Shown: positions 10,531 through 64,000 of the stretch, piece after piece
How the letters are laid out: every line of letters begins with the position of its first letter
How positions within the stretch are numbered: position 1 is the first letter of the stretch
Assembly: GCA_000004695.1 (NCBI GenBank)
Contig: CM000152.2
Span: forward strand, 5,216,001 to 5,280,000
Length of the DNA: 64,000 bases
DNA from: Dictyostelium discoideum
Taxonomy: Eukaryota
Direction of reading: 5' to 3'
Program-made: the position numbers and the translations under genes
The notes under the pieces: generated by a model
The model's input: the letters and a program-made list of their open reading frames with translations, nothing else
What the model was told of the DNA's origin: nothing
Database searches by the model: none

Positions 10531-10570
<40 letters not shown>

Positions 10571-13902: not shown

Positions 13903-13944
<42 letters not shown>

Positions 13945-14176
13945 ATACAAATACATTAATTATTATTAATGAATTGAAATAAAAAAATAAAAAAATAAAT
14001 AAATAAAAAAGAATAAAAGAAAGAAATTCTCAAATAAAAAAAAAAACTATAAAATAAAAAATTTCAACCACATTTAATATATTAAAAATAATAAATAAAT
14101 AAATAAATATTTAAATAAATATTAATTAAATAAATTAATTAATTAATAAAATATATAAATAATAATACAAAATAAA

Positions 14177-14887: not shown

Positions 14888-15138
14888 ATTATAAAAATAA
14901 AAATTGTAAATTAAATTATAAAAATAAAAATAAAAATTGTAAATTAAATTAATTTAATGGCTAAAAATAACTTTTTTTATTTTATTTTATTTTAATTTTT
15001 TTTTTTTTTTTTTTTTTCAATCAAAAAAACAATAAATAAAAAAAAAAAAAACTATTTTTTAAAACCATTACATTTTGTTAAAACCATCATTGAAATTAAT
15101 TAAAATATAATTTTGACACAGGAAAAGAAAAAAAAAAA

Positions 15139-16227: not shown

Positions 16228-16317
<90 letters not shown>

Positions 16318-18051
16318 TTTAATAAAATAATTTATTGGTTAAAATATAATTCAAATGATTTAGAATATCTTGAATCATTTGATATTAATGTACATACAAC
16401 TCATCAACTAGCATTTAAATTCGGTAATTTTGAATTATTTAAAAAATGGTTACTTTATTGTTTTGATAATGATTTAAACTCAATTTTAATGAATTATCTT
16501 CAATCTGTTTATCAATTTAACCCAACACCAAAACAAAAGCAACAGCAACACCAACAACCACAACCACCTCCTTTATTTGAATATTGTAAAAATGATGAAA
16601 AATCTCAAATTAAATTTATTAATGATTATATTAGTTTATTTTTATCATTAAATAATAATAGAATGGATAATGAATATAAAGAATATTTAAAATCTATGGG
16701 TATATTGTATCTATTATTTGGTTTAATAAAATTCAATAATTTAAAACTTTTAAAAATAATGTTTCAACATATACATAATCAAGATTTTATTTATAAATTT
16801 GAAAAATCTCAAAAAATTATCTTTCAAAATTTAATTGAGCATATAAAATCAATTGAAATTTTAGATTTTATAAATTCAAATTATTCAAAATATCTAAATG
16901 AAGATGGTTGTGAAAAAACTTTTGAAATTAAATGTTTAGATCCATTGAATATTAATATATTGGAACATTTAGAATCAATATTACCAAATGGATTTGAAAT
17001 TAAAATTAAAGAATTAAATTCATCATTACTTTTTCACATATTAAACAACTCAAATAATACAACAAAAGTAAAAATTGAAGAATTTGAATCAATATCCTTC
17101 TCTGTAAGATCAAATAATGAATTACAAACTATAATTAAAATATTATCATTGGATAAATATCATTTTAAATATCATTTATATAGACCATTTAAACATCCAA
17201 AAGATTTGAAAAATGAAAATGAAAATGAAAATGATTATTATTTCAATCATTTTAGAGACTATTCACCATTTAGAATCTCATTATTTAAATGGATTTTTAA
17301 TAATAGAAAAGAACATTTACATAGTAGCAATGGTAGATTAGAAATTGAAAAGAGTGACCTTAATGAATTACTTTATTTAATTGGTGAATTTAATGATCTA
17401 ATAACAATAGAAAAACAAGATGATAGTTCATTACGTTATGTCTATCAGAGAATTGGTGAAAAAGGTGATTTTAAAACATTAAAGTTATTATTACAATCTT
17501 TTAAAATTTCAAATGAAAATTTAAATAGATTATTGTATAGTTCCGCTGAATTTGGTAGATTAGAAATATTTCAATATTTAAAGAAATCATATCCAAATAT
17601 TTTTCAATCTTTCTTTGATGATGGTGGTTGTAGTAGTATTAGTAGTAGTAGTAGTATTGGTAGTGCTATCAATATGTATGGTGTTAATTTTGGTGTCAGT
17701 GGTGCTGGTGGTATTGATCAAACAATTGTTGAAGATAATAATAATAGAATAAAATCAACAAATTTGAATGAAATCGAATCATATAGTAAATATTATTTTT
17801 ATGATTTAAATAAAAGATGTGATTTTAGTCAAACTGATACAATCCTTGTCACCAATCAATCCTTTAAATCCTTTTCCCCATTGAAAATCCAAGAATTATT
17901 AAAAGATCAAGAATCAAAGTTTAACTTTTTAACTCAAAGAACTGGTTTCACTTCGACCTGGGATGGTAGAAATAGAAGTACTCCAAATTCAATTCAAAAA
18001 TGTTGTATGAAAAATAATCATAAAAATTTATTTCAATTTTTAAAACAATAA
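15139..18051 (+). CDS. large hypothetical protein (970 aa) with an internal poly-Asn tract
   Basis: Long uninterrupted ORF with coding-type codon usage. (AAT)n at about 16231..16318 encodes about 35 Asn. No family recognised. Confidence 0.65.
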
Positions 18052-20310: not shown

Positions 20311-20972
20311 ATGTCAGTAGATCAAGAATTAATTGAAACTCAAAAGAATTGGATCCCATTAGAAGCAAATCCAGAAGTATTAACAACATTTATGCAAAGT
20401 TTAGGAGTTTCTAAAGATTGGGAATTCTGTGATATATATGGTATTGATGAAGGTTTACTTGAAATGGTACCATCACCATGTGTAGCTGTAATTTTATTAT
20501 TCCCAATCACCAATGAAGTATGTATTTTTATTTTTATTTTTATTTTTATTTTTATTTTAATTTTAATTTTAATTTTCAAATTCATTCATTCTCAAATAAT
20601 TAATAATTTTATACTAAATTTAGTATGAAGATAAAAGATATAAATTAGAGAAAGAGATTGAAGAGAAAGGTCAAGTTTTATCAGATAAAGTTTATTTTAT
20701 GAAACAATATATTGGAAATGCATGTGGTACAATTGGTGTGATTCATTCAGTATTAAACAATGCAAATGTTATTGAATTTAATGAAAATGGTTTCTTTAAA
20801 CAATTTTTAGATAAAACCACATCACTTTCAACTGAAGAGAGAGCAATCTCACTTTTGAAAAATAGTGAAATCGAAAAATCTCATGAAATCTCTGCACTTC
20901 AAGGTCAAAGTAATGTACCACAAGAAGATGAACCTGTAGTTTTACATTTTGTTTCATTTGTTCATGTATGTA

Positions 20973-21033
<61 letters not shown>

Positions 21034-21319
21034 GTTAATAATTAATAAATTAATAAATTTTTACTAATAATTAATTTAATAATTAATTATTTAATAATAG
21101 GTTGATGGACATTTATATGAATTAGATGGTAGAAAACCATTTGCAATTAATCATGGTGAATCAAGTGCTGAAACATTATTAAAAGATACAGCTAATGTTT
21201 TACAAAAGATGATTGATGAAGATCCAAAAGAAATTAGATTTAATTTAATGGGTTTGGTTAAAAAACCAAATGAAGAAAGTGAGGAAGAAGAAGAAAAAGA
21301 AAAAGAAGAAACAAAATAA
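20311..21319 (+). CDS. ubiquitin C-terminal hydrolase, UCH-L3-like (peptidase C12), 3 exons (20311..20517, 20624..20965, 21101..21319)
   Basis: '[23 protein letters not shown]', the active-site '[17 protein letters not shown]', and '[10 protein letters not shown]|[22 protein letters not shown]' match UCHL3 ('[31 protein letters not shown]'). Introns: GTATGT at 20518 to 'tttag' ending at 20623; GTATGT at 20966 to 'aatag' ending at 21100. Each intron contains a microsatellite ((TTTTTA)n; (AAT)n). Confidence 0.85.
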
Positions 21320-21461
21320 ATAAATAATAATTATTTCTTTTTTTTTTTTTTTTTTTTATAATTAATATTTTTTCTTTTTTTTTTTTTTTTTTATAATTAT
21401 TATTATTAACTTAATATTTAATTATTTTTTTTTATTAAAATATCATTTAAAGATAAGAAGG

Positions 21462-21510
<49 letters not shown>

Positions 21511-21564
21511 AAGGCTAACCTTCCTTTTTTTTTTTTATTTTATTTTATTTTATTTTAATTTAAT

Positions 21565-22371
21565 TTAATTTTTAAAAGAATCATCTAATTTTTCAACAAT
21601 TCTATAATAAGATTTCCATTCTTTTTTACCATTTCCTTGTTTGGTGAAAGAAGCAGCTGTACGAGTTGAAAAATCTCTAATTTGTTTATCTGGAATATCT
21701 AATTTTGAAATATCACCACCAACCATTGATAACATTTTAACTTGGATTTCACAAGTTTTAACGAGTTGATAGAGGAAAAAGAAAGCTTCTTCGATGGAAT
21801 TACCACATGAAACGATACCGTGATTACGGAGAATTAAATTCTTATTTACAGGTCCCAACGATTTAACGATACGTTCTTGTTCTTGAGCATTGATTGAAAT
21901 ACCTTCATAGTTGTGATAAGAGATATCACCAATAATAAAAGAGTTTTGACTGATTGGTAATAAACCTTCCTTATAGCATGCTACTGCAACAGTATCTTCT
22001 TGATGTACATGCATTGTTGCGAGAATGTCAGGACGAGCTTTATGAATTGCACCATGAATTACATAACCAGTTTTGTTGATACCCAAATCGGTACTACCGG
22101 CATCGATGATCTTTCCATCCATATCGATTGTTACCAAACTTGTTGCTGTAACCTCATCAAATCTCATTCCAAATGCATTCAATAACATATGATCCGTACC
22201 TGGTACTCTTGCTGTTAAATGATTATAAATCAATTCATCCCATCCTAAATGTGCGACCATTCTATAAGTTGCTGCCAATTTGACACGAACTAAATATTCT
22301 TCATCTGAATATTTAGTTTTATTAACTAATGAAAGGTCATCACTACTTGTAAATTTATTATTTGAAATCAT
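21565..22371 (-). CDS. class II aldolase/adducin-domain protein
   Basis: 268-aa single-exon ORF 'VRVKLAATYRMVAHLGWDELIYNHLTARVPGTDHMLLNAFGMRFDEVTATSLV...HVHQEDTVAVACYKEGLLPISQNSFIIG'. This is the aldolase_II fold family with its conserved His-rich metal site. Confidence 0.8.
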   Translation of the reverse strand: MISNNKFTSSDDLSLVNKTKYSDEEYLVRVKLAATYRMVAHLGWDELIYNHLTARVPGTDHMLLNAFGMRFDEVTATSLVTIDMDGKIIDAGSTDLGINKTGYVIHGAIHKARPDILATMHVHQEDTVAVACYKEGLLPISQNSFIIGDISYHNYEGISINAQEQERIVKSLGPVNKNLILRNHGIVSCGNSIEEAFFFLYQLVKTCEIQVKMLSMVGGDISKLDIPDKQIRDFSTRTAASFTKQGNGKKEWKSYYRIVEKLDDSFKN

Positions 22372-41884: not shown

Positions 41885-42025
41885 ATAAATTTTAAATTAT
41901 AACGAAATCATATTTTTCCAGTTTTCAAAACTTGGTCACGAAACAGTACTATTTCTTGACGATTTTTTATTTAATTATTGATGATACATTTATAGTTTTT
42001 ATAATTTTTTTAAAGAATTTATTAT

Positions 42026-45000
42026 TTAATTTTTAAAGATATAGTTTATATGATTTTGAATGATTTTTTCATTAACCATTCCTCCTTCATATGAGTTCAT
42101 TGATTGTAATAATTCTTTAGTTTTCTTTGAAACACCAAATCCATGACCCAAGTTATAAACACCATTGAGTCTATCTAATGAATGGAATGTTTTGAACTTT
42201 ATACATGATAGAATCTTTGATTGATTAATGATATTCTTCCATTGTTCATATTCAACCATTTCACATCCATATTGCTTTTCCAAGAATGAGAATGATGATT
42301 TAATTGATGAAACTTCACTATTTAAACTATAGATATTTAATTGATTTGAAGATGATTTATTCCAACATTTTTCATTTCCAATCATTTTAATTGTATTTAA
42401 ACCTATCCAACCAATTGGTGATGTTAATATGTTTTTATCAATATTTGGATACTTTTTAACTGCATAACATGATTGAATAATTAGTTGGAAGAAATCAGAA
42501 TCATGACCAATACCTGTTTCTTCATGTGAAAATATAATTGGTAGTCTAATTAACATTGATGGAATACCTCTTTTTGCTGCTTCTCTAAATAAATTTTCAA
42601 CAACTACTTTACTTTTCATATAACCACCTGGTAAATTATTAATATTTTCAATTGTTGGTATTACTGTTTCTTCATCAAATTCTTTACAATTTGGTGATTC
42701 AAAGAATACTGATATTGAACTAAATCCTACAATTGGTTTTTGATAATCACCAGTTGTTGAAAGTTTAATCAATTCAATTAAACCACCAATATTTACAACT
42801 TTACTCTCTTCATAATTTGATGCCAAATTAATATCGGCACCTGAATTAATTATTAAATTAATTTGGTTTGAAACAAAACCAAAATCTAATTTTGATAATC
42901 CTAATAATGGTGATGCTAAATTACCAACGATTACTTTAACTTTTGATAATTCAAATTCATTGTGAAAGTGATATAGTTTATGATGTTTCAAATTATTAAT
43001 TATTGCATTGATTGGATTTGGTTCTGATTTTTTATTTCTAATTAAACAATATACAACTGAACAGTTTGGTGATTTAATTAAGTTTGATAATAAATGAACA
43101 CCTAAAAATCCTGTTGCACCAGTTAAAAATACTTTTGAGTCATTTCTAAAATCAATTGGATTCATTTTAATTGCTTGAATTGATTCATCTAATTTCATTT
43201 CATTTCTCCAATATTCTAAACTTGGTGCTGAATCTTTTTTAATAATTTTTTTTGATTTTCCTTTAGTTTCATTTGAATCTAGTTTTTTGATTTGTTCTAA
43301 AATAATTTGAATATTTACTCCAATTGTATTATTTTGTAATTGTTGAAGTGTAATTACATTTGATTTATTTTCTTTATCAATGAAATTCTTTAATTGTACT
43401 GAAGTTAATGAATCTGCTCCATATTCACCTAAACGAATATCTGTGTTGATCTTTGATTGTTCAATTGATAAGAGTTCTGAAATTTTATTCAAAAATTTCA
43501 TTTGGATACTCTCTGAAATACTAATATTTTCACCACCATTATTATCATTATCTTTTTCCTTGATAGAATTTAAAATGAAATCTAATCTTTGGAAAGTTGA
43601 TGTTTCTGATGCGAATTTCTTAATTGAATCATAGTTAAATTTACTAACAATTAAATTTGAATATTTATTTGAATTTTGAAGTTGTAAATCTAATGAACCT
43701 AAAATTATATTTGTTGGAATTGGAATGAAACCTTGATCATCTAACATTTTTGAAACTGAATCATTTCTTGATACGAAACCTGATGATTTAATTGTTCCCC
43801 AATTTGTGCACGTTGATGGTAAACCAATTGATTTACGATATCTTGATAGTGAATCTAATACTAAATTTGCAGAAACATAAGTACATTGGTTGAATGAGCC
43901 AAATAATGATGCAATCGATGATGCCATAACAAATTGTTTTAATTTCCATGATTTCTCAATTGAGATTTCATGTAAATTAATTGCACCCATCGTTTTAGCA
44001 TTATGTGAAATATCTAATGATTCAATATCGATTTCTTCTACTTCTTTAGTTACTTGAGTGAACGCGTAATGGAATATTGAATCAATGTTATCAATATTTG
44101 GATTTTCTAATAAAATTTGATTAATTGATTTTCTCATTTCAATTGAATCACCAACATCTACGATCTTGAAATGGAACTTGGTGTTATTATCCTTTCTTGA
44201 TATTGTTTTATTGATTAATAGTTCTAACTCCCATTTTAATGATGATTTTGATAAAATGATAATGTTTTCAAATGATTCTGTTGGAGGTGAATATTTAATT
44301 AACCATTTTAAGATTTCTAAAATAATACCTGATTGACCTGTAATAATTATATTTTTACCAATTATATTTTTTGTATCAATTTTGAAATCATATTTTAATA
44401 TTGTATGATTCTTTTCATTGTTATCTGATTCAATGAGTTGATTTAATAATCCATCACTACCGATACTACCATTTGAACAACTATGATCTAATACAATTTT
44501 ACCAATATGTTTTCTTTGATTAATATATTCAATTGCTTCTTTGACATTTTCAATCTGGAATGTTGTTATCGGAATTAGTTTCACTTTGTTTTCATTTAAA
44601 GCATTTGAAATAGATTTTAATAATCTTGAAACTACTCTTTTATTAATATGCATAAATTCGATATTATGATAACTCTTGTTAAATTTGAAATTGTTGAAAT
44701 TTAAAAATTCATTGTTATTTAAATGGGTGATTGAGAGATCAATGATTTTACCTCTTTCTTTTAAACATAAAAAGTTTGAATGTGTAAATTCATTTGGTAA
44801 TGTATTTATAATTAAATCTACTCCGTTGAATTTACCAGTTGTACCATAAAGTTGATTTAATTTTGATTTGATTTCATTTACATAGTTTTTATTTCTTGAT
44901 GAATAAATTCCAGTTATGAATGATCCATAATTATCAATTAAATATTGTTCTTTATCTTTTGAACCTACTGTGACGAAAATTGGTGATTTATGACCTTTCC

Positions 45001-48000
45001 ATTTTAATATTTCTAATGTTGCTAAACCAATACCACCTGTTGCTGAGTGAATTAAAATGACTTCATCATCATCGATATTAAAATTACCAATGTTGAACAT
45101 ACCATGAAGACATGTTGAAAAAATGATTGGTAATGACGCTGCTTCAATATGACTAATATTATTTGGTTTATGTGAAACATAAAGTACATCAGTTATAACA
45201 TGAGATGCAGTTGCATCGTGTGATACACCAAAAACATTATCGCCTACTTTAAATTCACAATTTTTATTTTCATCAGATATTCTTGTGATAATACCTGAAA
45301 ATTCGAGACCAAGTGGATTTTTAGATATTGATACATTTTCATCAATAACAACTAAACCACGATAAATTAAATAATCTTTATAATTAATACCTGTTGCTAA
45401 AACTTTGACTTCAATTTCATTCTTTTTTAATTTCTTTGGTTTTGATGCTAATTTATATTCTAAATTTGTTGAATCTAAGAGTGTCATAAAATCATTATCT
45501 TCGAATGAATTTGAATTGAAGTTTGATTTTATATTCTTTTCATTCTTTAATATTTCATAATAAATTGAATTATTTCTAATTATATATTCTCTTTGAATAT
45601 GGTTATTTGAATTTTCAATCAATTGATTAATGATTTTATTTAATAATGATGATATCGATAATTGATTATCAAAATCGATTGAATATAGATTTAAACTTGG
45701 AAATTCATTAAAGTATCTTGATGCACCTATTATTGATGATGATAAATAGTTTTTGATTTGTGAATCAATAGTAATTAATACATGTTTACATGTTAAACTA
45801 TGTTTTAAAAGTTGTTGATTAATTTCAATATATTCCATTGTAATTTGTTTGAAATTATTCATTTCTAATTGTTCCATTGATTTAATAAAGTAAATTATTG
45901 AATCATTTGTTATTGAAGGTAATAGTTGATTAAATTCATTAATATTTGATATTGTTGTTTGTTTGCGATTGGTATGATTATTTGAAATTAATTTCTTAAA
46001 TTCATTTGTATATTTTGAATGTTTTTCACAATAAATGATAATATTATCATTTTTATTGTTTGGAACAACTGTTAATTCATTTGATAATATTGTAGATTTT
46101 TGTGATTGTATTACTTTGTTCGATTTCTGAATTTTGTTCTCATTAAAACCTACACCGATTAAATTATTGATATTAAATCGGATACCAATATCATCTTCAA
46201 TTATTAATAATAATAATCCATTTGAAGAAAGAATATTAAATATTGGTTTGATGATTGTTTCATCATTATTATTATTAATGATAATATCATAGTATGATGG
46301 TTTTAACTGGGTTATATCATTTTTAAAGATTAAACTTGAATCGTGTAAAGTTGGAAGTTTATCATTTGAATTATCAATAATTGTAAATTCTATATCGATT
46401 TCTTGTAAACTATTATCGAAAATTTGATTTAATGCTTCAATGATTTGTTTTGATAGTTCTGAATCTGAAAATGATTGTAAAATTCTAAAAACAATCTTTT
46501 CATTTATTATTGGTTTGATTGTTTGTTTAATAATTTCTGTAACTGTGTTGCTGCTGCCACTGCTGCTAGAAGTTTCATTATTATCAATGGATAAAATATT
46601 AACTAATGAATCTTTACATTGTAAATTATTTGTAAATAGTTCATTTGTAGGATTATTAAGTAATAATTCATCAATCAATGGAAGAGTTGAACGGAATGAT
46701 ATATGTTCTATTTCTAATAACTTTGTACCATCTTCTAATAAAACTAAAACTGATGATTTATAGCTATCTGCTTCCAAGGAGATGAATTTTGCTTGACAAT
46801 AGATATTCTTATATTTTAATTTGTCAGTTGGTATATTTTCAGAATAAACTTTTAAACCTTCAAGTCTTTCAAATACAAACTGGCTTGAATTTGTAATGAA
46901 TCCAGTGATGGCTTGTATACAGTTATCTAATAGCGCTATATTGAAAAATGATTTGTCAAATGTTTGATAAACAGGTTTACCATTGATATCAAAGTTTTCG
47001 TAGTTTATTTGTATTCTTGCAATTGTAAGATCATTGCCAAAGTGAAATTCTTCAATTCCTTGGAAAGTTCCTAAATGAGTGATACCTGATCTTAATTTAG
47101 AGTACTTATAAACTTCTTGTTTGGAAAGGGTAGTAAAATTACATTCTGATAGCAATTGATTTATATTATATTTAGATGAGTGATTATTATTATTATTATT
47201 ATTATTATCTTTTAATGATATAAGTTGAAAGTTACCAGTACATGTTTGAACCCATTGATTTGCTTTATTGTCTTTTATGTTGAATGTAACTCTATAATCA
47301 GTGTTACCTAATTGATAAACGTTGGTTTGTAAAATATGTTTGACATTTTCTTTTAAAACAAATGGTGCTAAAAATTCCAAGTTATTAATTACAATATCTT
47401 TATTTGGGTAAAGTTTCATAATATTATCAGCATATCCAATACCTGGGAAGTAATATTTTCCTTTTACAATATGGTCTTTTAAATATTTGAATGGATTTCT
47501 ATTTATATCGATTATTGATTCATATGATTTGTTATTTGATGAATAGTTAATCATTGATTTACCTAAGTTGTTGAAAACGTTTGGTCCATTTAATCTATAT
47601 TGTTCAAAGTTAATATCAACTTTCCAATAGTATTGTTCATCGAATTGATAGTTTGGTAAAATTATAGTGCTATTGTTTCTAATGGAATTGACATCATCAT
47701 CATTGTGATTGAATTGGCATTTAAAGTTTATATCATAACCTAAACAATAAATTTGTGAAATTGTTGAATGAATTTCATCTAAATCATTGGAGTTCTTTTT
47801 GTTTGTTGATGTTAATACTGAAACTGAATTAAAGTAACTTGATGATTTTGGTATCATTTGTTTTAAATAAAATGATAAACTTGGATGTGGTGAAACTTCA
47901 ATAAATATTAATTCATTACCAAGTTTATTATTTTCAATGTGTTGATATAAATTTGAAATAGTTTGAGAGAATCTGACAGGTTGTATTATATTTTCATAAA

Positions 48001-50453
48001 CATAACTTGAATTGAATGGAGTAGTTTCATGATTAAATAAATTAGTTGTAACTGTTGAAAATGTTGGAATTGTTGATTGTCTTGATGGTATTTCTAATGG
48101 TAAAATTTCATTTTTGGTTGAGTTTTGGCTACTTGTGTGGAATGATGATAATGAACCTAAAAATGCGCAAAAGATATTATTTTCTTTTAAGTCTAATGAT
48201 ATCTCTTTTAAAATATTTTCATTACCTGCAATTACAATTGATGTTGGTGAATTATAGCATGCAACTTCAATTGTTGGATATTTATTTGAATAAAGTTCAA
48301 TAAATTCTGAATGACTGATATTGACTGATAACATTTTACCACATCCATTTGTATTATTTTGAGAAATTGATCTGTGGTAAATTAATTTACAAACTGTTTG
48401 GAAATCTACCATACCTGAACAATATGATGTTGCTATTTCACCTAAACTATGACCAACAATGAATGATACATTGATACCCCAATGTTTGTATAGTTCAAAT
48501 AATGATATTTGTAACATTAATATCGATGGTTGAGCGATTATTGGTTGATGGATTGATATAATGTCATCATCTTTAATTGATCTTAATTTATCTAAAACTG
48601 AGTATCCATAGTATTTACTTAACTCTTTATTGAATTTGTCCATCGATGATCTGAATATTGGTTCACATTCATAAAGTTGTTGAGCCATTTTATTCCATTG
48701 TGAACCTTGACCTCCGAAAACAATAACAATCAATGGTTGATTTCTTTTAATTGTAATATTTGAGGATTTGTCATTGCTTGTTTTAAAGTACTTGTTTTTA
48801 GTTTTTAATTGATCCCAATTACTTGAAATTAAAACTGATCTTTGATATAGTTTCTTTGATTTTGAATAAATTTGATTCTTAACAAACTCTTTGAATGAAT
48901 TTGTAGAAAGATTATTATCATTTATTATTAAGTCTTCATAATTTTTTAATGATTTTACTGAATTGGCTGAAAATGGTATTAAAAATATTTGTTGTTGCGA
49001 TTCAATTGGATAACTAGGGTTATTACCATTTAGACTGATTGAGTGTTCAATAAATTGTGATAAAATTAAACAACAATTTGAGCCAGTTACACCAAAGTTA
49101 TTAATAACCATTGATACTGGTTTTTCATTAATATTTGTAAATGGTATTGCTTCTGTTACAACTTTAATATTCCAATCTTTAAAGTTAATCTTTGGATTTG
49201 GTTGATCAAAATTAACATTTGGTGCATAATGTTTATTTTTAAACATTAAACAACATTTGATTAATGATGCAACACCTAATATTAATATTAATATTTATAA
49301 AAAAAAGAGTTAAAAATTAATATATATATTTTTTTTTTATATGGTTTATAAATGGTTATAGCTTACCACTTGCAGCTTCACAATGACCAATATTAGATTT
49401 GAGTGATCCAATGAGTAATGGTTTAGATGGTGTTGATGTTGTTGATGAATTTAGAGCCATTGATACACCTTCTACTTCAATTGGATCACCTGTTGGTGTT
49501 CCTGTACCATGACATTCTACGAAACTAATATCTGATGCTTTCATATTTGCACTTTTCAATGCTAATTTGATATTATCAGATTGTGATTGTTTGGATGGTG
49601 AATAAAAGTTTGATTTATCATTTAAACCACCTCCATCGACATTTGAACTAAATGAATTAATTACACAATAAATATTATTACCATCTCTAATTGCGTCTGA
49701 TAATGGTTTTAAAATTACAATACCACAACTCTCTGCACGAATGTAACCATCTGCTTCTGAATCAAATGGTTTACATTTACCTTTTTTACTTAACATATTT
49801 AAAAATGAAAATGATTTTGAAACGTATGGATCAAGTAATAAACTGGCACCACCCACAATTGATAGATTTGAAGTACCATTTTGAATTGATTGAAAACCCA
49901 TTGTAATTGAATTCAATGATGAAGAACATGCTGTATCAATTGTCATTGATGGACCTCTGATATCATATGAAAATGATAATCTATTTGAAATGGTATGAAG
50001 AACATTTGATGCGAAATAATTTTCAGATGTTTCATTAAAGTCTCTATTTGTTGTTGAATAATCTAATGTTGAGCAACCAATGAAACAAGATGTATTTGAA
50101 CCTCTAATATCGATTGGATCGATGAATGCATCTTCTAATGCTTCCCATGTACACTTTAATAGTAATCTTGTTTGTGGATCCATTAGGGGTACTTCTGATG
50201 GATTGATTGCGAAATGAACTGGATCGAAATCACTCCATTCTTTTAATGGTAATAATCCACCAAATTTATTATTAACTTCACCGAGTAAATTGATATTGTC
50301 ACTCCATCTTTCTGATGTTTCAACAATACCACTGAATCCATTCTTTAAATTATTCCATAAATGTGAAACACTACCATTATTAATTGATTCTTTACCTTGT
50401 GGAATTCTAAATCCAATACCTACAATGGCAATTTCTTTATTTCCAAATTCCAT
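42026..50453 (-). CDS. type I iterative polyketide synthase, copy A (2778 aa); complement(42026..49275, 49367..50453); KS-AT-DH-linker-ER-KR-ACP-R
   Basis: KS: Cys '[13 protein letters not shown]' (about 49930) plus '[12 protein letters not shown]' and 'GHCEAASG'. A 91-nt intron (donor GTAAGC at 49366..49361, acceptor 'ttag' at 49279..49276, phase 1) lies just before '[19 protein letters not shown]'. AT: 'GQGSQW' and 'GHSLGE' (about 48440). DH: 'HxxxGxxxxP' as '[15 protein letters not shown]' (about 47460). ER (MDR): '[15 protein letters not shown]' (about 45035). KR: '[17 protein letters not shown]' (about 44335). ACP: '[14 protein letters not shown]' (about 43410). C-terminal reductase: '[18 protein letters not shown]' (about 43115) with about 390 aa beyond it. 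There is no obvious SAM motif in the about 600-aa DH-ER spacer. Confidence 0.9.
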
Positions 50454-50996
50454 TTTCTTTTAATACACTAAAAACATTGATTCCAATAGTTGCTGATTAC
50501 ATAACGAAGGGAATGAGAGTGGACAATTAATTTTTAATCTTTTTATTTAAAAATATGGTGCTTTTTTGTTTTGTAAGGAATGTTAGAAATTATTACTATT
50601 TATTTATTTATTTTTATTTATATTTTAATATTATTACCATAAACACTTGTGTAAATAAATACATACATATAAATTATTTTTGTTAATTTTTTAAAAAGAA
50701 AAAAAAAAATTTTAAAAAAAAAAATTTAAAAAAAAAATGAAAAAAGAAAAAAAGAAAAAAATTATTAATAAAAAAAAAAAAAAAAAATAGAAAAAATATT
50801 ATTTAATAATAATTTAGTGGTGGTTTAAAACAATATATTTAATTTTATACTATATGATTGTTTAAAACAATTTGGAAATTATATTCTTTAATTTTTGGTT
50901 AATTTTTTTTTTTTTTTTTTTATCTTATTTTTTTTTTTTTTATAATTATTCTAATTAATTTAATATTATGATTTAAAAATAAAAAATTAATATTTG

Positions 50997-52600: not shown

Positions 52601-52802
52601 ATGATACAATTATCAATCAATAATCATATCTTAGTTAAACTAATTAATTTTTATAATAATTCATAATATTTGTAAATATTAAATTAAAAAAAAAAAAAAA
52701 AAAAAAAATAATTTAAAAATAAATATGGATAATAAAAATTTAGGTGGTGTAAAAAAGGTGCTTTGGATTTTAAGAAAAATGAAAAAACTAAGATTTGTTT
52801 AT

Positions 52803-55800
52803 TTAATTTTTAAAAATATAGTTTATATGATTTTGAATCATTTTTTCATTGACCATTCCTCCTTCATATGAGTTCATTGATTGTAATAATTCTTTAGTTT
52901 TCTTTGAAACTCCAAATCCATGACCCAAGTTATAAATGTTATATAAATCATCTAATGAATGGAATGTTTTTAATTTTATACATGATAGAATCTTTGATTG
53001 ATTAATGATATTCTTCCATTGTTCATATTCAACCATTTCACATCCATATTGCTTTTCCAAGAATGAGAATGAAGGGTTCATTGCTGAAACTTCACTATTT
53101 AAACTATAGATATTTAATTGATTTGAAGATGATTTATTCCAACATTTTTCATTTCCAATCATTTTAATTGTATTTAAACCTATCCAACCAATTGGTGATG
53201 TTAATATGTTTTTATCAATTTTTGGATACTTTTTAACTGCATAACATGATTGAATGATTAACTGCAAGAAATCAGAATCATGACCAATACCTGTTTCTTC
53301 ATGTGAGAATATAATTGGTGGTCTAATTAACATTGATGGAATACCTCTTTTTGCTGCTTCTCTAAATAAATTTTCAACAACTACTTTACTTTTCATATAA
53401 CCACCTGGTAAATTATTAATATTTTCAATTGTTGGTATTACTGTTTCTTCATCAAATTCTTTACAATTTGGTGCATTAAAGAATACTGATATTGAACTAA
53501 ATCCTACGATTGGTTTTTGATAATCACCAGTTGTTGAAAGTTTAATTAATTCAATGAAACCACCAATATTTACAACTTTACTCTCTTCATAATTTGATGC
53601 CAAATTAATATCGGCACCTGAATTAATTATTAAATTGATTTGATTTGAAATATAATCAAAATCTAATTTTGATAATCCTAATAATGGTGATGCTAAATTA
53701 CCAACTATAACTTTAACTTTTGATAATTCAAATTCATTGTGAAGTTGATATAGTTTATGATGTTTCAAATTATTAATTATTGCATTGATTGGATTTGATT
53801 CTGATTTTTTATTTCTAATTAAACAATATACAACTGAACAATTTGGTGATTTAATTAAGTTTGATAATAAATGAACACCTAAAAATCCTGTTGCGCCTGT
53901 TAAAAATACTTTTGAATCATTTCTAAAATCAATTGGATTCATTTTAATTGCTTGAATTGATTCATCTAATTTCATTTCATTTCTCCAATATTCTAAAGTT
54001 GGTGCTGAATCTTTTTTAATAATATATTTTGATTTTCCTTTAGTTTCATTTGAATCTAGTTTTTTGATTTGTTCTAAAATAATTTGAATATTTACTCCAA
54101 TTGTATTATTTTGTAATTGTTGAAGTGTAATTACATTTGATTTATTTTCTTTATCAATGAAATTCTTTAGTTGTACTGAAGTTAATGAATCTGCTCCATA
54201 ATCACTTAAACGAATATCTGTGTTGATCTTTGATTGTTCAATTGATAAGAGTTCTGAAATTTTATATAAAAATTTCATTTGGATACTTTCTGATATACTA
54301 ATATTTTCACCACCATTACTGTCATTATCTTTTTCTTTGATTGAATTTAAAATGAAATCTAATTTTTGGAAAGTTGATGTTTCTGATGCGAATTTCTTAA
54401 TTGAATCATAGTTAAATTTACTAACAATTAAATTTGAGTATTTATTTGAATTTTGAAGTTGTAAATCTAATGAACCTAAAATTATATTTGTTGGAATTGG
54501 AATGAAACCTTGATCATCTAACATTTTTGAAACTGAATCATTTCTTGATACGAAACCTGATGATTTAATTGTTCCCCAATTTGTGCATGTTGATGGTAAA
54601 CCAATTGATTTACGATATCTTGATAATGAATCTAATACTAAATTTGCAGAAACATAACTACATTGGTTGAATGAGCCAAATAATGATGCAATCGATGATG
54701 CCATAACAAATTGTTTTAATTTCCATGATTTCTCAATTGAAATTTCATGTAAATTAATTGCACCCATCGTTTTAGCATTATGTGAAATATTTAATGATTC
54801 AATATCGATTTCTTCTACTTCTTTAGTTACTTGAGTGAATGCATAATGGAATATTGAATCAATGTTATCAATGGTTGGATTTTCTAATAAAATTTGATTA
54901 ATTGATTTTCTCATTTCAATTGGATCACCAACATCCACACTATTGAAATGGAATTTAGTGTTATTATCCTTTCTTGATATTGTTTTATTGATTAATAGTT
55001 CTAACTCCCATTTTAATGATGATTTTGATAAAATGATAATGTTTTCAAGTGATCCTGTTGGAGGTTTTGAAGGTGAATATTTAATTAGCCATTTTAAGAT
55101 TTCTAAAATAATACCTGATTGACCTGTAATAATTATATTTTTACCAATTGTATTTATTGTATCGATATTAAAATCATATTTTAATATTGTGTGATTCTTT
55201 TCATTGTTATCTGATTCAATGAGTTGATTTAATAATCCATCACTACCGATACTACCATTTGAACAACTATGATCTAATACAATTTTACCAATATGTTTTC
55301 TTTGATTAATATATTCAATTGCTTCTTTGACATCTTCAATCTGGAATGTTGTTATTGGAATTAGTTTTAATTTATTTTCATTTAAAGCATTTGAAATGGA
55401 TTTTAATAATCTTGAAACTACTTTTTTATTAATATGCATAAATTCAATATTATGATAACTCTTGTTGAATTTGAAATTGTTGAAATTTAAAAATTCATTA
55501 TTATTTAAATGGGTGATTGAGAGATCAATGATTTTACCTCTTTCTTTTAAACATAAAAAGTTTGAATGTGTAAATTCATTTGGTAATGTATTTATAATTA
55601 AATCTACTCCGTTGAATTTACCAGTTGTACCATAAAGTTGATTTAATTTTGATTTGATTTCATTGACATAGTTTTTATTTCTTGATGAGTAAATTCCAGT
55701 TATGAATGATCCATAATTATCAATTAAATATTGTTCTTTATCTTTTGAACCTACTGTGACGAAAACTGGTGATTTATGACCTTTCCATTTTAGTATTTCC

Positions 55801-58800
55801 AATGCTGCTAAACCAATACCACCTGTTGCTGAGTGAATTAAAATTACTTCATCATCATCGATATTAAAATTACCAATGTTGAACATACCATGAAGACATG
55901 TTGAAAAAATGATTGGTAATGATGCTGCTTCAATATGACTAATATTATTCGGTTTATGTGAAATCCAAAATGCATCAGTTATAACATGAGATGCAGTTGA
56001 ATCGTGTGATACACCAAATACATTATCGCCTACTTTAAATTCACAATTTTGATTTTCATCAGATATTCTTGTGATAATACCTGAAAATTCGAGACCAAGT
56101 GGATTTTTAGATATTGATATATTTTCATCAATAATGACTAAACCACGATAAATTAAATAATCTTTATAATTAATACCTGTTGCTAAAACTTTGACTTCAA
56201 TTTCATTCTTTTTTAATTTCTTTGGTTTTGATGCTAATTTATATTCTAAATTTGTTGAATCTAAGAGTGTCATAAAATCATTATCTTCGAATGAATTTGA
56301 ATTGAAGTTTGATTTTATATTCTTTTCATTCTTTAATATTTCATAATAAATTGAATTATTTCTAATTATATATTCTCTTTGAATATGGTTATTTGAATTT
56401 TCAATCAATTGATTAATGATTTTATTTAATAATGATGATACTGATAATTGATTATCAAAATCGATTGAATATAGATTTAAACTTGGAAATTCATTAAAGT
56501 ATCTTGCTGTACCTATTATTGATGATGATAAATAGTTTTTGATTTGTGAATCAATAGTAATTAATACATGTTTACATGTTAAACTATGTTTTAAAAGTTG
56601 TTGATTAATTTCAATATATTCCATTGTAATTTGTTTGAAATTATTCATTTCTAATTGTTCCATTGATTTAATAAAGTAAATTATTGAATCATTTGTTATT
56701 GAAGGTAATAGTTGATTAAATTCATTACTATTCGATATTATTTGCTTGGAATTGGTATGATTATTTGAAATTAATTTCATAAATTCATTTGTATATTTTG
56801 AATGTTTTTCACAATAAATGATAATATTATCATTTTTATTGTTTGGAACAACTGTTAATTCATTTGATAATATTGTTGATTTTTGTGATTGTATTACTTT
56901 ATTTGAATTTTGAATTTTGTTTTCATTAAAACCTACATTGATTAAATTATTGATATTAAATTGAATACCAATATCATCTCCAACTATTAATAATAGTCCA
57001 TTTGAAGAAAGAATATTAAATATTGATTTGATGATTGTTTCATCATCACCATCATTATTATTATTAATGATAATATCATAGTATGATGGTTTTAACTGGG
57101 TTATATCATTTTTAAAGATTAAACTTGAATCGTGTAAAGTTGGAAGTTTATCATTTGAATTATCAATGATTGTAAATTCAATATCGATTTCTTGTAAACT
57201 ATTATCATCGAAAATTTGATTTAATGCTCCAATGATTTGTTTTGATAATTCTAAATCTGAAAATGATTGTAAAATTCTAAAAATAATTTTTTCATTAATA
57301 ATTGGTTTGATTGTTTGTTTAATAATTTCTGTAACTGTATTGCTGCTGCTGCTGCTAAAAGTTTGATTATTATCAATGGATAAAATATTAACTAATGAAT
57401 CTTTACATTGTAAGTTATTTGTAAATAATTCAGTTGTAGGATTATTAATTAATAATTCATCAATCAATGGAAGAGTTGAATGGAATGATAAATGTTCTAT
57501 TTCCAATAACTTTGTACCATCTTCTAATAAAACTAAAACTGATGATATATAGCTATCTGATTCCAAGGAGATGAATTTTGATTGACAATAGATATTTTTA
57601 TATTTTAATTTGTCAGTTGGTATATTTTCAGAATAAACTTTTAAACCTTCAAGTCTTTCAAATACAAACTGGCTTGAATTTGTAATGAATCCAATAATGG
57701 CTTGTGCGCAATTATCTAATAGCGCTGTATTGAAAAATGATTTGTCAAATGTTTGATAAACAGGTTTACCATTGATATCAAAGTTTTCGTAGTTTATTTG
57801 TATTCTTGCAATTGTAAGATCATTGCCAAAGTGAAATTCTTCAATTCCTTGGAAAGTTCCTAAATGAGTGATACCTGATCTTAATTTAATGTACTTGTAT
57901 GCATCTTGTTTTGAAAGAGTTGTAAAATAACATTCTGATAGTAATTGATTTATATCATATTTTGATGAGTTATGATCTTTTAATGATATAAGTTGAAAGT
58001 TACCAGTACATGTTTGAACCCATTGATTTGTTTTATTATCTTTTATGTTGAATGTGACTCTATAATCAGTGTTACCTAATTGATAAACGTTGGTTTGTAA
58101 AGTATGTTTGACATTTTCTTTTAAAACAAATGGTGCTAAAAATTCCAAGTTATTAATTACAATATCTTGATTTGGGTAAAGTTTCATAATATTATCAGCA
58201 TATCCAATACCTGGGAAGTAATATTTTCCTTTTACAATATGGTCTTTTAAATATTTGAATGGATTTCTATTTATATCGATTATTGATTCATATGATTTGT
58301 TATTTGATGAATAGTTAATCATTGATTTACCTAAGTTGTTGAAAACGTTTGGTCCATTTAATCTATATTGTTCAAAGTTAATATCAACTTTCCAATAGTG
58401 TTGTTCGTCGAATTGATAGTTTGGTAAACTGATATTGACCTTGCTGTTTCTAATGGAACTGACATCATCATTGTGATTGAATTGACACTTGAAGTTTACA
58501 TCATAACCTAAACAATAAATTTGTGAAATTGTTGAATGAACTTCATCTAAATCATTGGAGTTTTTTTTGTTTGTTGATGTTAATACTGAAACTGAATTAA
58601 AGTAACTTGATGATTTTGGTATCATTTGTTTTAAATAAAATGATAAACTTGGATGTGGTGAAACTTCAATAAATATTAATTCATTACCAAGTTTATTATT
58701 TTCAATGTGTTGATATAAATTTGAAATAGTTTGAGAGAATCTGACAGGTTGTATTATATTTTCATAAACATAACTTGAATTGAATGGAGTAGTTTCATGA

Positions 58801-61315
58801 TTAAATAAATTGGTTGTAACTGTTGAAAATGTTGGAATTGTTGATTGTCTTGATGGTATATCTAATGGTAAAATTTCATTTTTAGTTGAATGTTGACTAC
58901 TTGTGTGGAATGATGATAATGAACCTAAAAATGCACAAAAGATATTATTTTCTTTTAAATCTAATGATATCTCTTTTAAAATATTTTCATTACCTGCAAT
59001 TACAATTGATGTTGGTGAATTATAACATGCAACTTCAATTGTTGGATATTTATTTGAATAAAGTTCAATAAATTCTGAATGACTGATATTGACTGATAAC
59101 ATTTTACCACAACCGTTTGTATTATTTTGAGAAATTGATCTGTGGTAAATTAATTTGCAAACTGTTTGGAAATCTACCATACCTGAACAATATGATGTTG
59201 CGATTTCACCTAAACTATGACCAACAATGAATGATACATTGATACCCCAATGTTTGTATAGTTCAAATAATGATATTTGTAACATTAATATTGATGGTTG
59301 AGCGATTATTGGTTGATGTATTGATATAATATCATCATCTTTAATTGATCTTAATTTATCTAAAACTGAGTATCCATAGTATTTACTTAACTCTTTATTG
59401 AATTTATCCATCGATGATCGGAATATTGGTTCACATTCATAAAGTTGTTGAGCCATTTTATTCCATTGTGAACCTTGACCTCCGAAAACAATAACAACTA
59501 ATGGTTGATTTCTTTTAATAGTAATATTTGAGGATTTGTCATTATTTGTTTTAAAGTACTTGTTTTTAGTTTTTAATTGATCCCAATTAATTGAAATTAA
59601 AACTGATCTTTGATATAATTTCTTTGATTTTGAGTAAATTTGATTCTTAACAAACTCTTTGAATGAATTTGTAGAAAGATTATTATCATTTATTATTAAG
59701 TCTTCATAATTTTTTAATGATTTTACTGAATTGGCTGAAAATGGTATTAAAAATCTTTGTTGTTGTTGTGATTCAATTGGATAACTAGGGTTATTACCAT
59801 TTTGATTGATTGTTCAATAAACTGTGATAAAACTAAACAACAATTTGAACCAGTTACACCAAAGTTATTAATAACCATTGATACTGGTTTTTCATTAATA
59901 TTTGTAAATGGTATTGCTTCTGTTACAACTTTAATATTCCAATCTTTAAAGTTAATCTTTGGATTTGGTTGATCAAAATTAACATTTGGTGCATAATGTT
60001 TATTTTTAAACATTAAACAACATTTGATTAATGATCCAACACCTGAAATTAATATTTATAAAATAAAAAAAAAGTTAGAATTAATATTTTTGGTTTTTTT
60101 TATTTTATTTTATAAATGGTTATAACTTACCACTTGCAGCTTCACTATGACCAATATTAGATTTGAGTGATCCAATGAGTAATGGTTTAGATGGTGTTGA
60201 TGTTTTTGATGAATTTAGAGCCATTGATATGCCTTCTACTTCAATTGGGTCACCTGTTGGTGTTCCTGTACCATGACATTCTACGAAACTAATATCTGAT
60301 GCTTTCATATTTGCACTTTTCAATGCTAATTTGATATTATCAGATTGTGATTGTTTGGATGGTGAATAAAAGTTTGATTTATCATTTAAACCACCTCCAT
60401 CGACATTTGAACTAAATGAATTAATTACACAATAAATATTATTACCATCTCTAATTGCGTCTGATAATGGTTTTAAAATTACAATACCACAACTCTCTGC
60501 ACGAATGTAACCATCTGCTTCTGAATCAAATGGTTTACATTTACCTTTTTTACTTAGCATATTTAAAAATGAAAATGATTTTGAAATGTATGGATCTATA
60601 TAAATAAATGTATATAATAATTAAAAAAAAAAGAAAAAGAAAATTGAAGAATAAAAATAAAATAATAAATGTTTAAATTCTGAATTAACATACCAAGTAA
60701 TAAACTGACACCACCCACAATTGATAGATTTGAAGTACCATTTTGAATTGATTGAAAACCCATTGCAATTGAATTCAATGATGAAGAACATGCTGTATCA
60801 ATTGTCATTGATGGACCTCTGATATCATATGAAAATGATAATCTATTTGAAATGGTATGAAGAACATTTGATGCGAAATAATTTTCAGATGTTTCATTAA
60901 AGTCTCTATTTGTTGTTGAATAATCTAATGTTGAGCAACCAATGAAACAAGATGTATTTGAACCTCTAATATCGATTGGATCGATGAATGCATCTTCTAA
61001 TGCTTCCCATGTACACTTTAATAGTAATCTTGTTTGTGGATCCATTAGGGGTACTTCTGATGGATTGATTGCGAAATGAACTGGATCGAAATCACTCCAT
61101 TCTTTTAATGGTAATAATCCACCAAATTTATTATTAACTTCACCGAGTAAATTGATATTGTCACTCCATCTTTCTGATGTTTCAACAATACCACTGAATC
61201 CATTCTTTAAATTATTCCATAAATGTGAAACACTACCATTATTAATTGATTCTTTACCTTGTGGAATTCTAAATCCAATACCTACAATCGCAATTTCTTT
61301 ATTTTTAAATTCCAT
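52803..61315 (-). pseudogene. type I PKS copy B: near-identical paralog of copy A, 3 exons with a frameshifting 4-nt deletion in exon 3. Exons about 60694..61315 and 60130..60595; exon 3 is the two fragments 59812..60042 and 52803..59811, broken by the frameshift at 59811/59812
   Basis: Line-by-line, the sequence matches copy A with 0-4 differences per 60 nt (offset about 10.8 kb). Same domain motifs (KS 'GHSEAASG', AT 'GHSLGE', R '[10 protein letters not shown]'). Relative to A it has (i) an extra 98-nt intron 60596..60693 (GTATGT...tatatag) splitting 'LLL|D|PY' in the KS domain; (ii) the shared KS-C-terminal intron 60043..60129; (iii) a 4-nt deletion at about 59811/59812 (A 'GAACACTCAATCAGTCTAAATGG' vs B 'GAACAATCAATCAAAATGG', minus strand). 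This puts '[10 protein letters not shown]' into a frame that stops after '[18 protein letters not shown]'. The remaining 2217-codon ORF (52803..59456 and open up to about 59811) is in another frame. No plausible intron rescues it. The pseudogene call assumes the sequence is correct. Confidence 0.7.
60596..60693 (-). other. copy-B-specific phase-1 intron within the KS domain (absent from copy A)
   Basis: B has 98 extra AT-rich nt that begin GTATGTTAATTC and end TTTATATAG exactly between codons that are contiguous in A ('TTACTTG|ATCCATAC'). Confidence 0.75.
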
Positions 61316-61932
61316 TTTTTTTTTTTTTTTTTTTTTTTAGTACACCAAAAATAAAAATAAAATAAAAAAAAATAAAACAATTTATACCATTTAAAAATAT
61401 TACTATTTTGAAGGACCAAAGTGAGAAATGAAAACTTTGCTCTTGATAGTTATGATTACATTCCAAAGGGGGCTGATTATTAATTAATTTTAAATCTTTT
61501 GGTTATAAAAAAAAAAAAATAAAATTGAGAATTTTTAAAAAAAAAAAATTAAAAAAGAAAATAAAAAAAAATTAAAAAAAAAAATTAAAAAATCTCCAAA
61601 AATATCTTATTACCTAATTATCATCGGGAAAAAAAAAAGTTGATTAGAAACAAAAATTATTTTAAATTTTTATTGGAGCCTGTGGTTTTTGCAAGATATT
61701 TTAAATAACACTTTGAAACCAAAAGTTGTAATTAGTAAAAATAAAAAAAAAAAAAATAGAAGATTATATTTGGGCAAATAAAAAAAAAAATTTTATGGTA
61801 TTAAATTAAATATTTAATTTAGCCATGAGATTTAAATAATTTAAGATTTATTTTTTACACTTTGGGATTTTTTTTTATTTTTTTATTTCCGGAACTCTTT
61901 TAATTAAGGATGTTGTAGGGAATTTTCAATAA

Positions 61933-61993
61933 AATTTCACTACAGTAGCGTAGTGAATTTTATTATTTAATTTCACTACAGTAGCGTAGTGAA
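61933..61993. repeat. tandem direct repeat of a 23-bp GC-containing unit 'tttcactacagtagcgtagtgaa' (2 copies, 14-bp spacer)
   Basis: Directly visible. It lies between the PKS-B 5' region and the retroelement fragment. Function unknown. Confidence 0.8.
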
Positions 61994-62420
61994 AAAAAAA
62001 AATCACTGACCCTAAATTTTTTTTTTTTTCAAAAAACAAATAAAGTTTATTAAATTATTATCTTTTATTTGATTATTAGTTCTATTTAAGTTTTTTTATT
62101 TTTTTTTTTTTATTTTATTTTTTTTTTTTTTTATTTTATTTTTTTTTTTTTTTTTTGCGCCAAAATTTTTTTTTTTTTTCCCCAACAAAACTTTTTTTTT
62201 TTTTTTTTTTTTTTTTATTTTCATTTTCCCAAAATGAAACAAGATAAATTATTTAAAATTTATTGAAGATAATAATTTTGAAAATACTAAACATAAAAAT
62301 TATAAATTTTTACATGATGAGTAAATATTTTTCCTTACCATAACACAATCATTTTTTAAATTCTGACCAATAAAAAACAGAAACAGAAAAGAAAAATTAT
62401 TTAGAATTGAAAAAAAAGTC

Positions 62421-64000
62421 ATGAATTGTGGCGGAGATAGAAATATATCAAAAGAAGTGTGTTTAGAAGTAATTAATGATTATAGAATGGTATCACTCTG
62501 GGAAGAAATGCATAAAGGTCATATAGGAAGAGATGCAACCTATGGGAACTACAAGACTAAATATTATAATATGGGATTGTATTCTTTTGTATCTGATGCA
62601 GTAGATACGTGTGACATTTGCCAACGAAATAGAATAAAAGGTTTGGTATCAATCATTTTTTATATGATGTTTTGTAACTTTTATATTAAAACTCTGTGAA
62701 AGTATGGCACTGCGATAATGGACGTGAATTTAAAAACAAAGTCCAAAAAGAATTCCTAAAACTTTTTCCAGGCTCCAAGTCAGCACATGGAGCTCCTCGT
62801 ACACCAACAACTCAAGGTATGGTAGAAAGATTGAATCGAACTATCAAGGAGAGGATCTCAAAATTAAAACAACAAGAGTATGATATTGTGAACAATATAA
62901 ATTATCGATATGTTTATTAATTAATCATTTATAAATAAATTTTAGTTTTCTTGATGGTACTTCTAGGTCTCTTTCTGAACTATTAAAACAAGCTTTGTAT
63001 GATTACAATAATACAAAAACAAGAACAATTAAAATGACACCATCTCAAGCTGTTGGTATTGTACCTTTGTTTATTAATGTGCAATCAGAACAAGACTCTC
63101 AATCAATTGGTGTTTCAGATGTTTCAAAAGAAGAAATAACAGCTATTATTCTTGAAAATCTCACAAGTTACCAAAATCAATGGAATTCAAAACCACCAAA
63201 GGGATTGAAAGTTGGTGATACTGTACTCTTTCTAGAAATTAAAAAAAATAATGTAAGTAATTAAAACATAAAGATTAATAATATATGAAACAGTAATAAT
63301 TAACAAATTTTATATTTAATTCTAATAGAAAATATTGATTTTGTGTAAAATTCATAAGGTAATACAGGAAGACACTAAACAACTTTATAAACTTGAATTT
63401 TTGGAAGATGGAATCAATAGCCTTCAAAAAAAAGGTTTATACTCTGGTTTTGTAGGAGGTAACAAGTTGGTTCTTTATAAACAATCAACAGTTGATATTT
63501 TTAGAACATCGCCAAACATACAAAAAGATATTGATTCTTTTACTTCTGGTCTTTATTTAAATAATGATGGGAAAGTTATTGAATTTCTGGTTCAGTTTAT
63601 TAAAAATCTTGGTAAGGATTTATCCAATTTCAACTTGCATCAATTGGTAACACAAAATGATCCATTTAGGGTTTTGGAAGATGCTCTTAACAATCCATCA
63701 AATATTCCACCTATCATTAACGATAATCCATTTCAACACAAACTCAATAATGAAATGGAACAAGAAGAAATACTCCCATTTTTAAATAATAATCCAACAG
63801 CGCCAAATTTAATGAATTGTTTGAGAAAGGATATGAATTTAAAAGAAATAGTACCACCAATACCTCAAGTGCAAATAATACCATCATATACTATACCACA
63901 ATCTGGTAGTGGTATAGTAACAACTGTTAAACGTCTCAGAGGCCGTCCTCATAAGATACCAATTGTTAATAAACCTCCTTTAAAATCACATTCTAAACCA
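62421..64000 (+). mobile_element. degenerate, 5'-truncated Ty3/gypsy-type LTR-retrotransposon pol fragment (integrase zinc finger, DDE core remnant, C-terminal region); continues beyond the window
   Basis: 'HKGHIGRDATYGNY...CDICQRNRIKG' is the integrase HHCC zinc-binding motif. 'WHCDNGREFKN...HGAPRTPTTQGMVERLNRTIKE' is the rve-core DDE region (second D and E). The ORF is broken into at least 3 frames (62421..62699, 62696..62920, 62995..63264, then an open frame to 64000 ending '...KRLRGRPHKIPIV', AT-hook-like). Only about 20 aa separate the zinc finger from the 'HCDNGREF' motif, implying an internal deletion. No RT/RNase H or LTR lies upstream within 61340..62420. Confidence 0.65.

Follow-up and report, generated by a model that had tools for sequence, protein, structure and literature searches.

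The 64,000-nucleotide (nt) stretch of the Dictyostelium discoideum genome considered here (assembly GCA_000004695.1, contig CM000152.2, positions 5,216,001 to 5,280,000 of the forward strand; hereafter the window, whose own numbering is used for all positions unless a locus of another assembly is named) has a GC content of 13-31% in 2-kb bins, mostly ~20-25%, and harbors on its minus strand a pair of long tandem genes, which we term copy A and copy B, lying 2.3 kb apart with B upstream. Copy A is intact and codes for a protein of 2778 amino acids (aa) that exactly matches the D. discoideum AX4 "Probable polyketide synthase 19"; it has a single intron of 91 nt (49366..49276). Copy B shows the hallmarks of an unprocessed pseudogene, namely 96% identity to pks19 over 8.4 kb, retention of both ancestral introns, and a location within the array, combined with a disabling lesion, viz., a frameshift followed by a premature TAA, which is reproduced in the assembly GCA_054883475.1. 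We propose with considerable confidence that B is a genuine unprocessed pseudogene, that it was inactivated very recently, and that it occupies the central place in the tandem array pks21 - B - pks19 on chromosome 3. The two copies and the parts of B are as follows:

42026..50453, minus strand: copy A, pks19 (DDB_G0282027, Q54T36), assigned from an exact protein match and the gene model
52803..61315, minus strand: copy B, a tandem paralog of pks19 and pks21, assigned from 96% identity to A and its place between pks19 and pks21
60694..61315, minus strand: exon 1 of B, with the ATG at 61315..61313
60596..60693, minus strand: intron 1 of B, 98 nt, GTATGT...ATATAG, 11% GC
60131..60595, minus strand: exon 2 of B
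60043..60130, minus strand: intron 2 of B, 88 nt, GTAAGT...TTTCAG, 11% GC
52803..60042, minus strand: exon 3 of B, which carries the frameshift
52803..59456, minus strand: residual long open reading frame (ORF) of B, 2217 aa from the first in-frame ATG, running from AT through the reductase domain downstream of the frameshift

The conceptual product of B displays, in Pfam terms, the domain order KS, KS-AT linker, AT, DH, ER, KR, ACP, and a NAD_binding_4 reductase release domain. These domains and their motifs are those of a highly reducing iterative type I polyketide synthase (PKS) with reductive release, encoded in this instance in two frames. The catalytic motifs that were checked are all kept (DTACSSS, HGTGT, GHSE, GHSLGE, HxxxGxxxxP, GGIG, GADSL, and TGATGFLG) and are distributed over the Cys/His/His of the KS domain, GHSLGE of AT, HxxxGxxxxP of DH, the ER and KR domains, GADSL of ACP, and TGATGFLG along with YxxxK of the reductase. 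Intron 2 interrupts the KS-terminal GHxEAASG motif and is shared with A; the 98-nt intron 60693..60596, which is absent from A, went unmentioned in the preliminary description of this DNA. In the AX2-type assembly the array is organized in the order vault-protein gene, pks21 (DDB_G0282029, B0G138, 2779 aa), B, pks19, and a gene for a 189-aa protein, with a spacer of 4.8 kb on the pks21 side of B and one of 2.3 kb on the pks19 side. B thus resembles pks19 and pks21 in domain order, in nucleotide sequence (96-97% identity), in its membership of the same tandem array, and in the possession of intron 2, but differs from both in being frameshifted; intron 1 is present in B and pks21 but has been lost from pks19.

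To delineate the lesion, A (50500..42000) and B (61362..52777) were compared on the minus strand with BLASTN and a global MAFFT alignment, the latter yielding 8143 matches, 318 mismatches, and 13 indel events. Within coding sequence 11 of the 12 indels are multiples of 3 (3, 3, 3, 3, 21, 3, 3, 9, 3, 3, and 9 nt), while one further 3-nt indel falls inside the shared intron and a 98-nt block corresponds to the extra intron of B. A second variable repeat, (AAT)n, underlies the 21-nt indel near B 57971. The sole coding difference between the two copies that breaks the frame is a loss of 4 nt in B, which in the pairwise view appears as a missing GTCT (A 49035..49032), with the gap between B 59804 and 59803. 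The features around this site are the following:

49032..49035, minus strand: GTCT of copy A opposite the gap in B, the local sequence of A having diverged to CACTCAATCAGTCTAAATGG
59802..59812, minus strand: deletion site in B, with the tract CAATCAATCAA (2.75 units), located from an alignment of 12 copies
59785..59822, minus strand: GT...AG segment (GTTTATTGAACAATCAATCAAAATGGTAATAACCCTAG) of 38 nt, treated as an intron in the annotation of the other assembly
59750..59801, minus strand: out-of-frame stretch replacing the ancestral residues in the translation of B
59757..59769, minus strand: (CAA)n polyglutamine tract in the KS-AT linker, variable in length and one unit longer in B than in A
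59747..59749, minus strand: premature TAA stop after ...NHNNNKDF, which ends the 460-aa product

The lesion lies at about residue 443, inside the linker domain KAsynt_C_assoc (Pfam), and displaces the ancestral frame of B by one base from 59801 downstream. With the frame so shifted, a TAA is reached 17 codons on, where translation would end, leaving a KS-only fragment that comprises the KS domain and half of the KS-AT linker domain; the AT, DH, ER, KR, ACP, and reductase domains would be missing from the product. When the 4 nt are restored, B codes for 2777 aa with zero other stops.

The nature of the loss becomes apparent from an alignment of 12 complete copies drawn from the arrays of two wild D. 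discoideum strains with the locus tags ACTFIR (GCA_054859385.1) and ACTFIW (GCA_054859355.1), the cryptic species D. cf. discoideum, D. citrinum, and D. firmibasis, and including the AX2-type pks21. At the deletion site, the tract is CAATCAATCAATCAA (3.75 units) in pks21 and in one copy of a wild strain, that is, one 4-nt unit more than in B: the context reads TTGAA-CAATCAATCAATCAA-AATGG in pks21 and the first ACTFIW copy (FIW_0), and TTGAA-CAATCAATCAA-AATGG in B, such that CAATCAATCAATCAAAATGG in the former two corresponds to CAATCAATCAAAATGG in B. The placement of the gap in B is ambiguous across the repeat tract 59802..59812. A loss of 'GTCT' from unique sequence was accordingly considered and rejected, given the repeat context revealed by pks21 and FIW_0; it has that appearance in the pairwise comparison because the local sequence of A has diverged. 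The reading frame at the site is kept in all 11 other copies, which represent three strains of D. discoideum along with three sister species, and the deletion in B is therefore the derived state. The (CAA)n tract close by differs in length in nearly every copy and strain.

Most of what the preliminary description had reported for this region stands. Its position for the loss, about 59811/59812, falls inside the ambiguous tract; the frame does end after NHNNNKDF, at the TAA 59749..59747 and after 460 aa; and the claim that B is otherwise intact over more than 8 kb agrees with our finding no other stop or frameshift and every checked motif kept. The region had also been called prone to indels, which is borne out by a lesion in a (CAAT)n tract ~35 nt from the variable (CAA)n tract. 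However, the two nearby in-frame indels listed there reduce to one, a single extra CAA at 59769..59757, as the '+TTG' is the same event described on the other strand. Likewise, the loss is indeed not in a homopolymer, yet it does lie within a tetranucleotide repeat.

Slipped-strand mispairing at short tandem repeats is a source of frameshift alleles. In B, a short (CAAT)3 repeat within the linker between KS and AT has been shortened by one 4-nt unit, most likely via slipped-strand mispairing, either in replication or during the gene conversion that appears frequent in the array. The likeness is that B lost exactly one unit of a perfect 3.75-unit tetranucleotide tract; the difference is that the tract is very short (three units) and sits in a ~50-nt pks21-like patch of a mosaic region. 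When B is compared with pks19 and with the pks21 of the AX2-type locus (L004, 10001..18517), its variants resemble those of pks21 around the site (59849..59803) and those of pks19 immediately downstream (59792..59775), and over the whole of B pks19-like and pks21-like tracts alternate in a fine-scale mosaic, some of them only tens of nt long. The deletion may have arisen during gene conversion rather than ordinary replication.

A first alternative is that the frameshift is real but is rescued by splicing of 59822..59785 as a micro-intron, leaving a 2762-aa PKS that is short of 14 linker residues. This is how B is represented in its only protein record, KAM9950444.1 (GenBank, GCA_054883475.1), an automatic model that depicts an intact 2762-aa protein by removing this segment and so stepping over the frameshift, its translation running through ...CCLVLSH up to the junction. 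The segment has GT and AG boundaries, its excision restores the frame exactly, the GT requires an A-to-G change at 59822 that is common to B and pks21, and the residues removed belong to the variable linker. In other respects it does not look like a spliceosomal intron. Its 38 nt contrast with the median of 104 bp and mean of 133 bp for D. discoideum introns (PMC4683709), with the 88-98 nt of the three real introns of A and B, and with the 76-284 nt seen for introns overall; its 29% GC is like that of exons (25%) and unlike the 11% of the real introns; and its 5' site is GTTTAT, as against GTAAG or GTATG in 21 of the 21 intron instances of the 12 aligned copies. Moreover, in all intact paralogs this stretch simply codes, in frame, for protein, and the model stems from an automatic pipeline that apparently also stepped over a 1-nt deletion in the middle copy of the ACTFIW array. 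The 38-nt intron is thus most likely an annotation artefact, judging from these sequence features, and we consider splicing rescue very unlikely. Were it true, it would amount to a nascent micro-intron carved from coding sequence, i.e., intronization following a frameshift, with B still a working PKS.

An alternative raised in the preliminary description is that the 4 nt are truly present, making B an intact gene for 2777 aa, and that their absence is a sequencing or assembly error. Two aspects of the locus lend themselves to this explanation: the lesion is single within an otherwise perfect 8.3-kb gene, and A, B, and pks21 are 96% identical and could mislead an assembler. Against it stands an independent de novo assembly, GCA_054883475.1 (ACTFIT locus tags), in which a 28.4-kb locus on CM142509.1 (L001) encodes the exact pks19 protein and matches the window letter for letter throughout A and in B from 60453 to 52803, the same 4-nt deletion included. 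Over the window segment 60453..31959 as a whole the two show 22 differences, all of them intergenic and mostly in homopolymer lengths, and this marks them as independently produced sequences. The site is also not a homopolymer, and the AX4 annotation assigns B no protein. We therefore regard this explanation as refuted for practical purposes, leaving it only a very slight chance; a one-off error at the site, in particular, appears effectively excluded.

As to the source of the second assembly, de novo assemblies built from Nanopore and Illumina data have been reported for nine wild isolates and the lab strain AX2-214, with AX2-214, CR116C, and OT3A listed as the D. discoideum strains (Holland et al. 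PNAS 2025; PMC12745789). The ACTFIT locus tags fall within the set deposited by that study. Three D. discoideum locus-tag sets occur among the protein matches, and pks19 and pks21 are identical to those of AX4 in the ACTFIT set only, because of which we take GCA_054883475.1 to be strain AX2-214. AX2 and AX3/AX4 were derived separately from NC4; therefore the deletion most likely predates the split of the AX2 and AX4 lineages and goes back to NC4 or near it.

The sequence of B also bears on the age of its inactivation. The ratio of nonsynonymous to synonymous divergence (dN/dS; Nei-Gojobori) is 0.25 for A and B and 0.28 for pks21 and B, the range for intact paralog pairs from the same arrays being 0.22-0.31, and there is accordingly no sign of relaxed constraint on B relative to intact pairs. 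Relative to eight other discoideum-clade copies, the changes private to B number 16 nonsynonymous and 22 synonymous; with ~80% of sites being nonsynonymous, so few nonsynonymous changes would be expected under neutrality with P = 3e-7. The corresponding ratio of 0.73 lies in the middle of the range of the intact copies (0.41-1.0). No second disabling lesion was found across the 8.3 kb of B. Given the intact-like dN/dS, the private ratio of 16:22, and the absence of a further lesion, essentially no part of the private history of B appears to postdate its loss of function, pointing to a very recent inactivation. Unrelaxed constraint is what would be expected of so recent a lesion, and it hence dates the event without contradicting pseudogene status. 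Together with the frame being kept in the other copies, these observations support the other option offered in the preliminary description, that of a young pseudogene.

Another possibility is that B has acquired a new functional product in the stand-alone KS protein of 460 aa, e.g., a trans-acting KS or a regulator of the paralogs, in which case B would not be dead. The N- and C-terminal domains of KS are indeed both complete in the fragment, and the Cys-His-His triad is retained. However, there is no sign of selection for the truncation, which occurs in one lineage only; the undecayed state of the downstream 6.9 kb fits recency rather than a settled new gene; and the transcript would bear a premature stop ~7 kb ahead of its normal 3' end. 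We therefore hold a functional fragment to be highly improbable. Nothing in the sequence suggests that the 2217-aa downstream ORF would be translated separately. Hardly credible is translational recoding, whereby -1 slippage of ribosomes over the run of Ts at the stop (GAT TTT TAA to TTT TTA ATA) would produce the full-length enzyme with a scrambled 17-residue linker segment: the U UUU UAA context would permit re-pairing of tRNA-Phe in the -1 frame, which is the ancestral frame, but programmed -1 frameshifting at T TTT TAA was rejected for want of a canonical heptamer, significant downstream structure, or conservation, in that the site does not conform to X XXY YYZ, the downstream 107 nt have a minimum free energy of -10.7 kcal/mol (z = -1.26, with 18 of 200 shuffles folding as well), TTTTTAA is conserved in-frame coding sequence of all intact paralogs, and no ortholog needs a frameshift.

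Some points nevertheless weigh against interpreting B as a recently inactivated pseudogene corresponding to pks20. The GenBank annotation does model B as intact by way of the 38-nt intron. Both lines of sequence evidence for the deletion are consensus assemblies of closely related lab strains, although a systematic artefact shared by them is very unlikely for a 4-nt difference outside a homopolymer. As B is a fine-scale mosaic, constraint could have been imported by conversion, and gene conversion from functional paralogs could partly explain the selection signature of its private changes. Finally, its identity as 'pks20' derives from position, from a numbering gap, and from the PKS numbers that UniProt is not known to include.

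The case for that identity is as follows. AX4 protein records are present for pks19 (DDB_G0282027) and pks21 (DDB_G0282029) and there is none for B, which, lying between the two, fits the "pks20" slot. UniProt is not known to include PKS4, 11, 12, 20, or 43. Hence, the pseudogene B is almost certainly the catalogued pks20, the name following from its position and the gap in the numbering. Five members of the D. discoideum pks family are reported to be pseudogenes, their ORFs being broken by stop codons (PMC9618038), and the total is given as 45 pks loci, of which 40 are putative genes and 5 are interrupted (PMC9618038; Zucko et al. 2007 as cited in PMC3188802). B resembles these five in being a type I iterative PKS locus with an interrupted ORF, no AX4 protein, and a place in the numbering gap between pks19 and pks21; it differs in that the type of lesion, its presence in a second lab-strain assembly, and its youth were worked out in this analysis. 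A literature search for pks20 and the DDB_G identifiers returned nothing. The 2217-aa ORF, the 88-aa out-of-frame ORF, and the exon-1 ORF of B were all absent from a collection of 15 billion proteins in an exact look-up, and a homology search with a 224-aa segment spanning the site recovered only two distant PKS fragments, none of them from read-level assemblies.

The wider array shows considerable variation across strains and species. There are two copies in ACTFIR, three each in ACTFIW and in AX4/AX2, two in D. firmibasis, and at least three at the D. citrinum locus, with D. cf. discoideum having at least seven protein models across two assemblies, five of them in one. An attempt to identify a one-to-one wild-strain ortholog of B by overall distance failed, the copies being mosaics; by promoter similarity, B corresponds in position to the middle copy of ACTFIW, which lies at 9414..17960 of the ACTFIW locus (L003, GCA_054859355.1). 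In the assembly consensus this copy has an independent 1-nt deletion (GATTATA-AGTT) outside a homopolymer at ~L003 12690, which breaks the frame at about residue 1025, and its protein model, KAM9958180.1 (2771 aa), apparently steps over this deletion. The middle copy of the array thus looks dispensable from the available sequences, because its wild-strain counterpart was frameshifted independently and another wild strain has two copies only. Short PKS remnants were also observed inside or beside the arrays of two sister species (20616..21662 of the D. cf. discoideum locus L005 and 7823..8430 of the D. firmibasis locus L007); one joins a KS N-terminus to an ACP region, the other is a piece of a reductase domain, and both are debris left by earlier unequal exchanges.

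Intron 1 offers a further record of exchange between copies. Its presence in B, pks21, and all outgroup copies marks it as ancestral. In pks19 (49832/49833) it has been removed precisely, as also in the upstream copies of each of the two wild D. discoideum strains. These intron-1-less copies have flanking variants in common, which suggests a single precise loss of the intron that was later moved between paralogous positions by gene conversion. Frequent precise intron loss has been described in D. discoideum (PMC4683709). Additionally, exons 1 and 2 (the first ~1.2 kb) of the three AX4 copies form one haplotype, distinct from those of the wild strains, which points to concerted evolution within the array. 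Lineage-specific PKS expansions are known in dictyostelids (PMC3188802). The array resembles tandem arrays under birth-and-death and concerted evolution in the range of copy number, from two or three to at least five, in the exchange between copies, and in the independent disabling of middle copies; rather than departing from that pattern in any unusual way, the B locus is a textbook instance of it.

Upstream of B, the window contains the following element:

61915..64000, plus strand: degenerate fragment of a long terminal repeat (LTR) retrotransposon, starting ~600 nt upstream of the ATG of B and cut by the window end

The terminus of this fragment is TGTAGGGAATTTTC, and it includes an Integrase_H2C2 ORF (62421..62699) and an rve_3-like ORF (62696..62920). 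Past the same breakpoint, the AX2-type assembly (L004 18518..22683) has unrelated sequence, including a DDE_3-like transposase remnant. This difference represents either a transposon polymorphism between lab strains or a differing assembly of repeats. A scan of the 64-kb window for tRNA genes found zero.

These results confirm the reference sequence at the deletion site of B and present a reported pks pseudogene as one killed by a single repeat-unit slip so recently that its other 8.3 kb are pristine. Restoration of the 4 nt should return a complete PKS, and B could serve natural-product work as a natural "off" allele. They also flag the misannotation of KAM9950444.1, which is intact only through an implausible 38-nt intron, and an apparently similar case in KAM9958180.1, over a 1-nt deletion. 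The inactivation of B is ordinary for a rapidly turning-over PKS array, with little significance beyond housekeeping; the locus nonetheless illustrates how a dictyostelid PKS array is shaped by changes in copy number, by gene conversion, and by an intron-loss allele that spread from one paralog to another.

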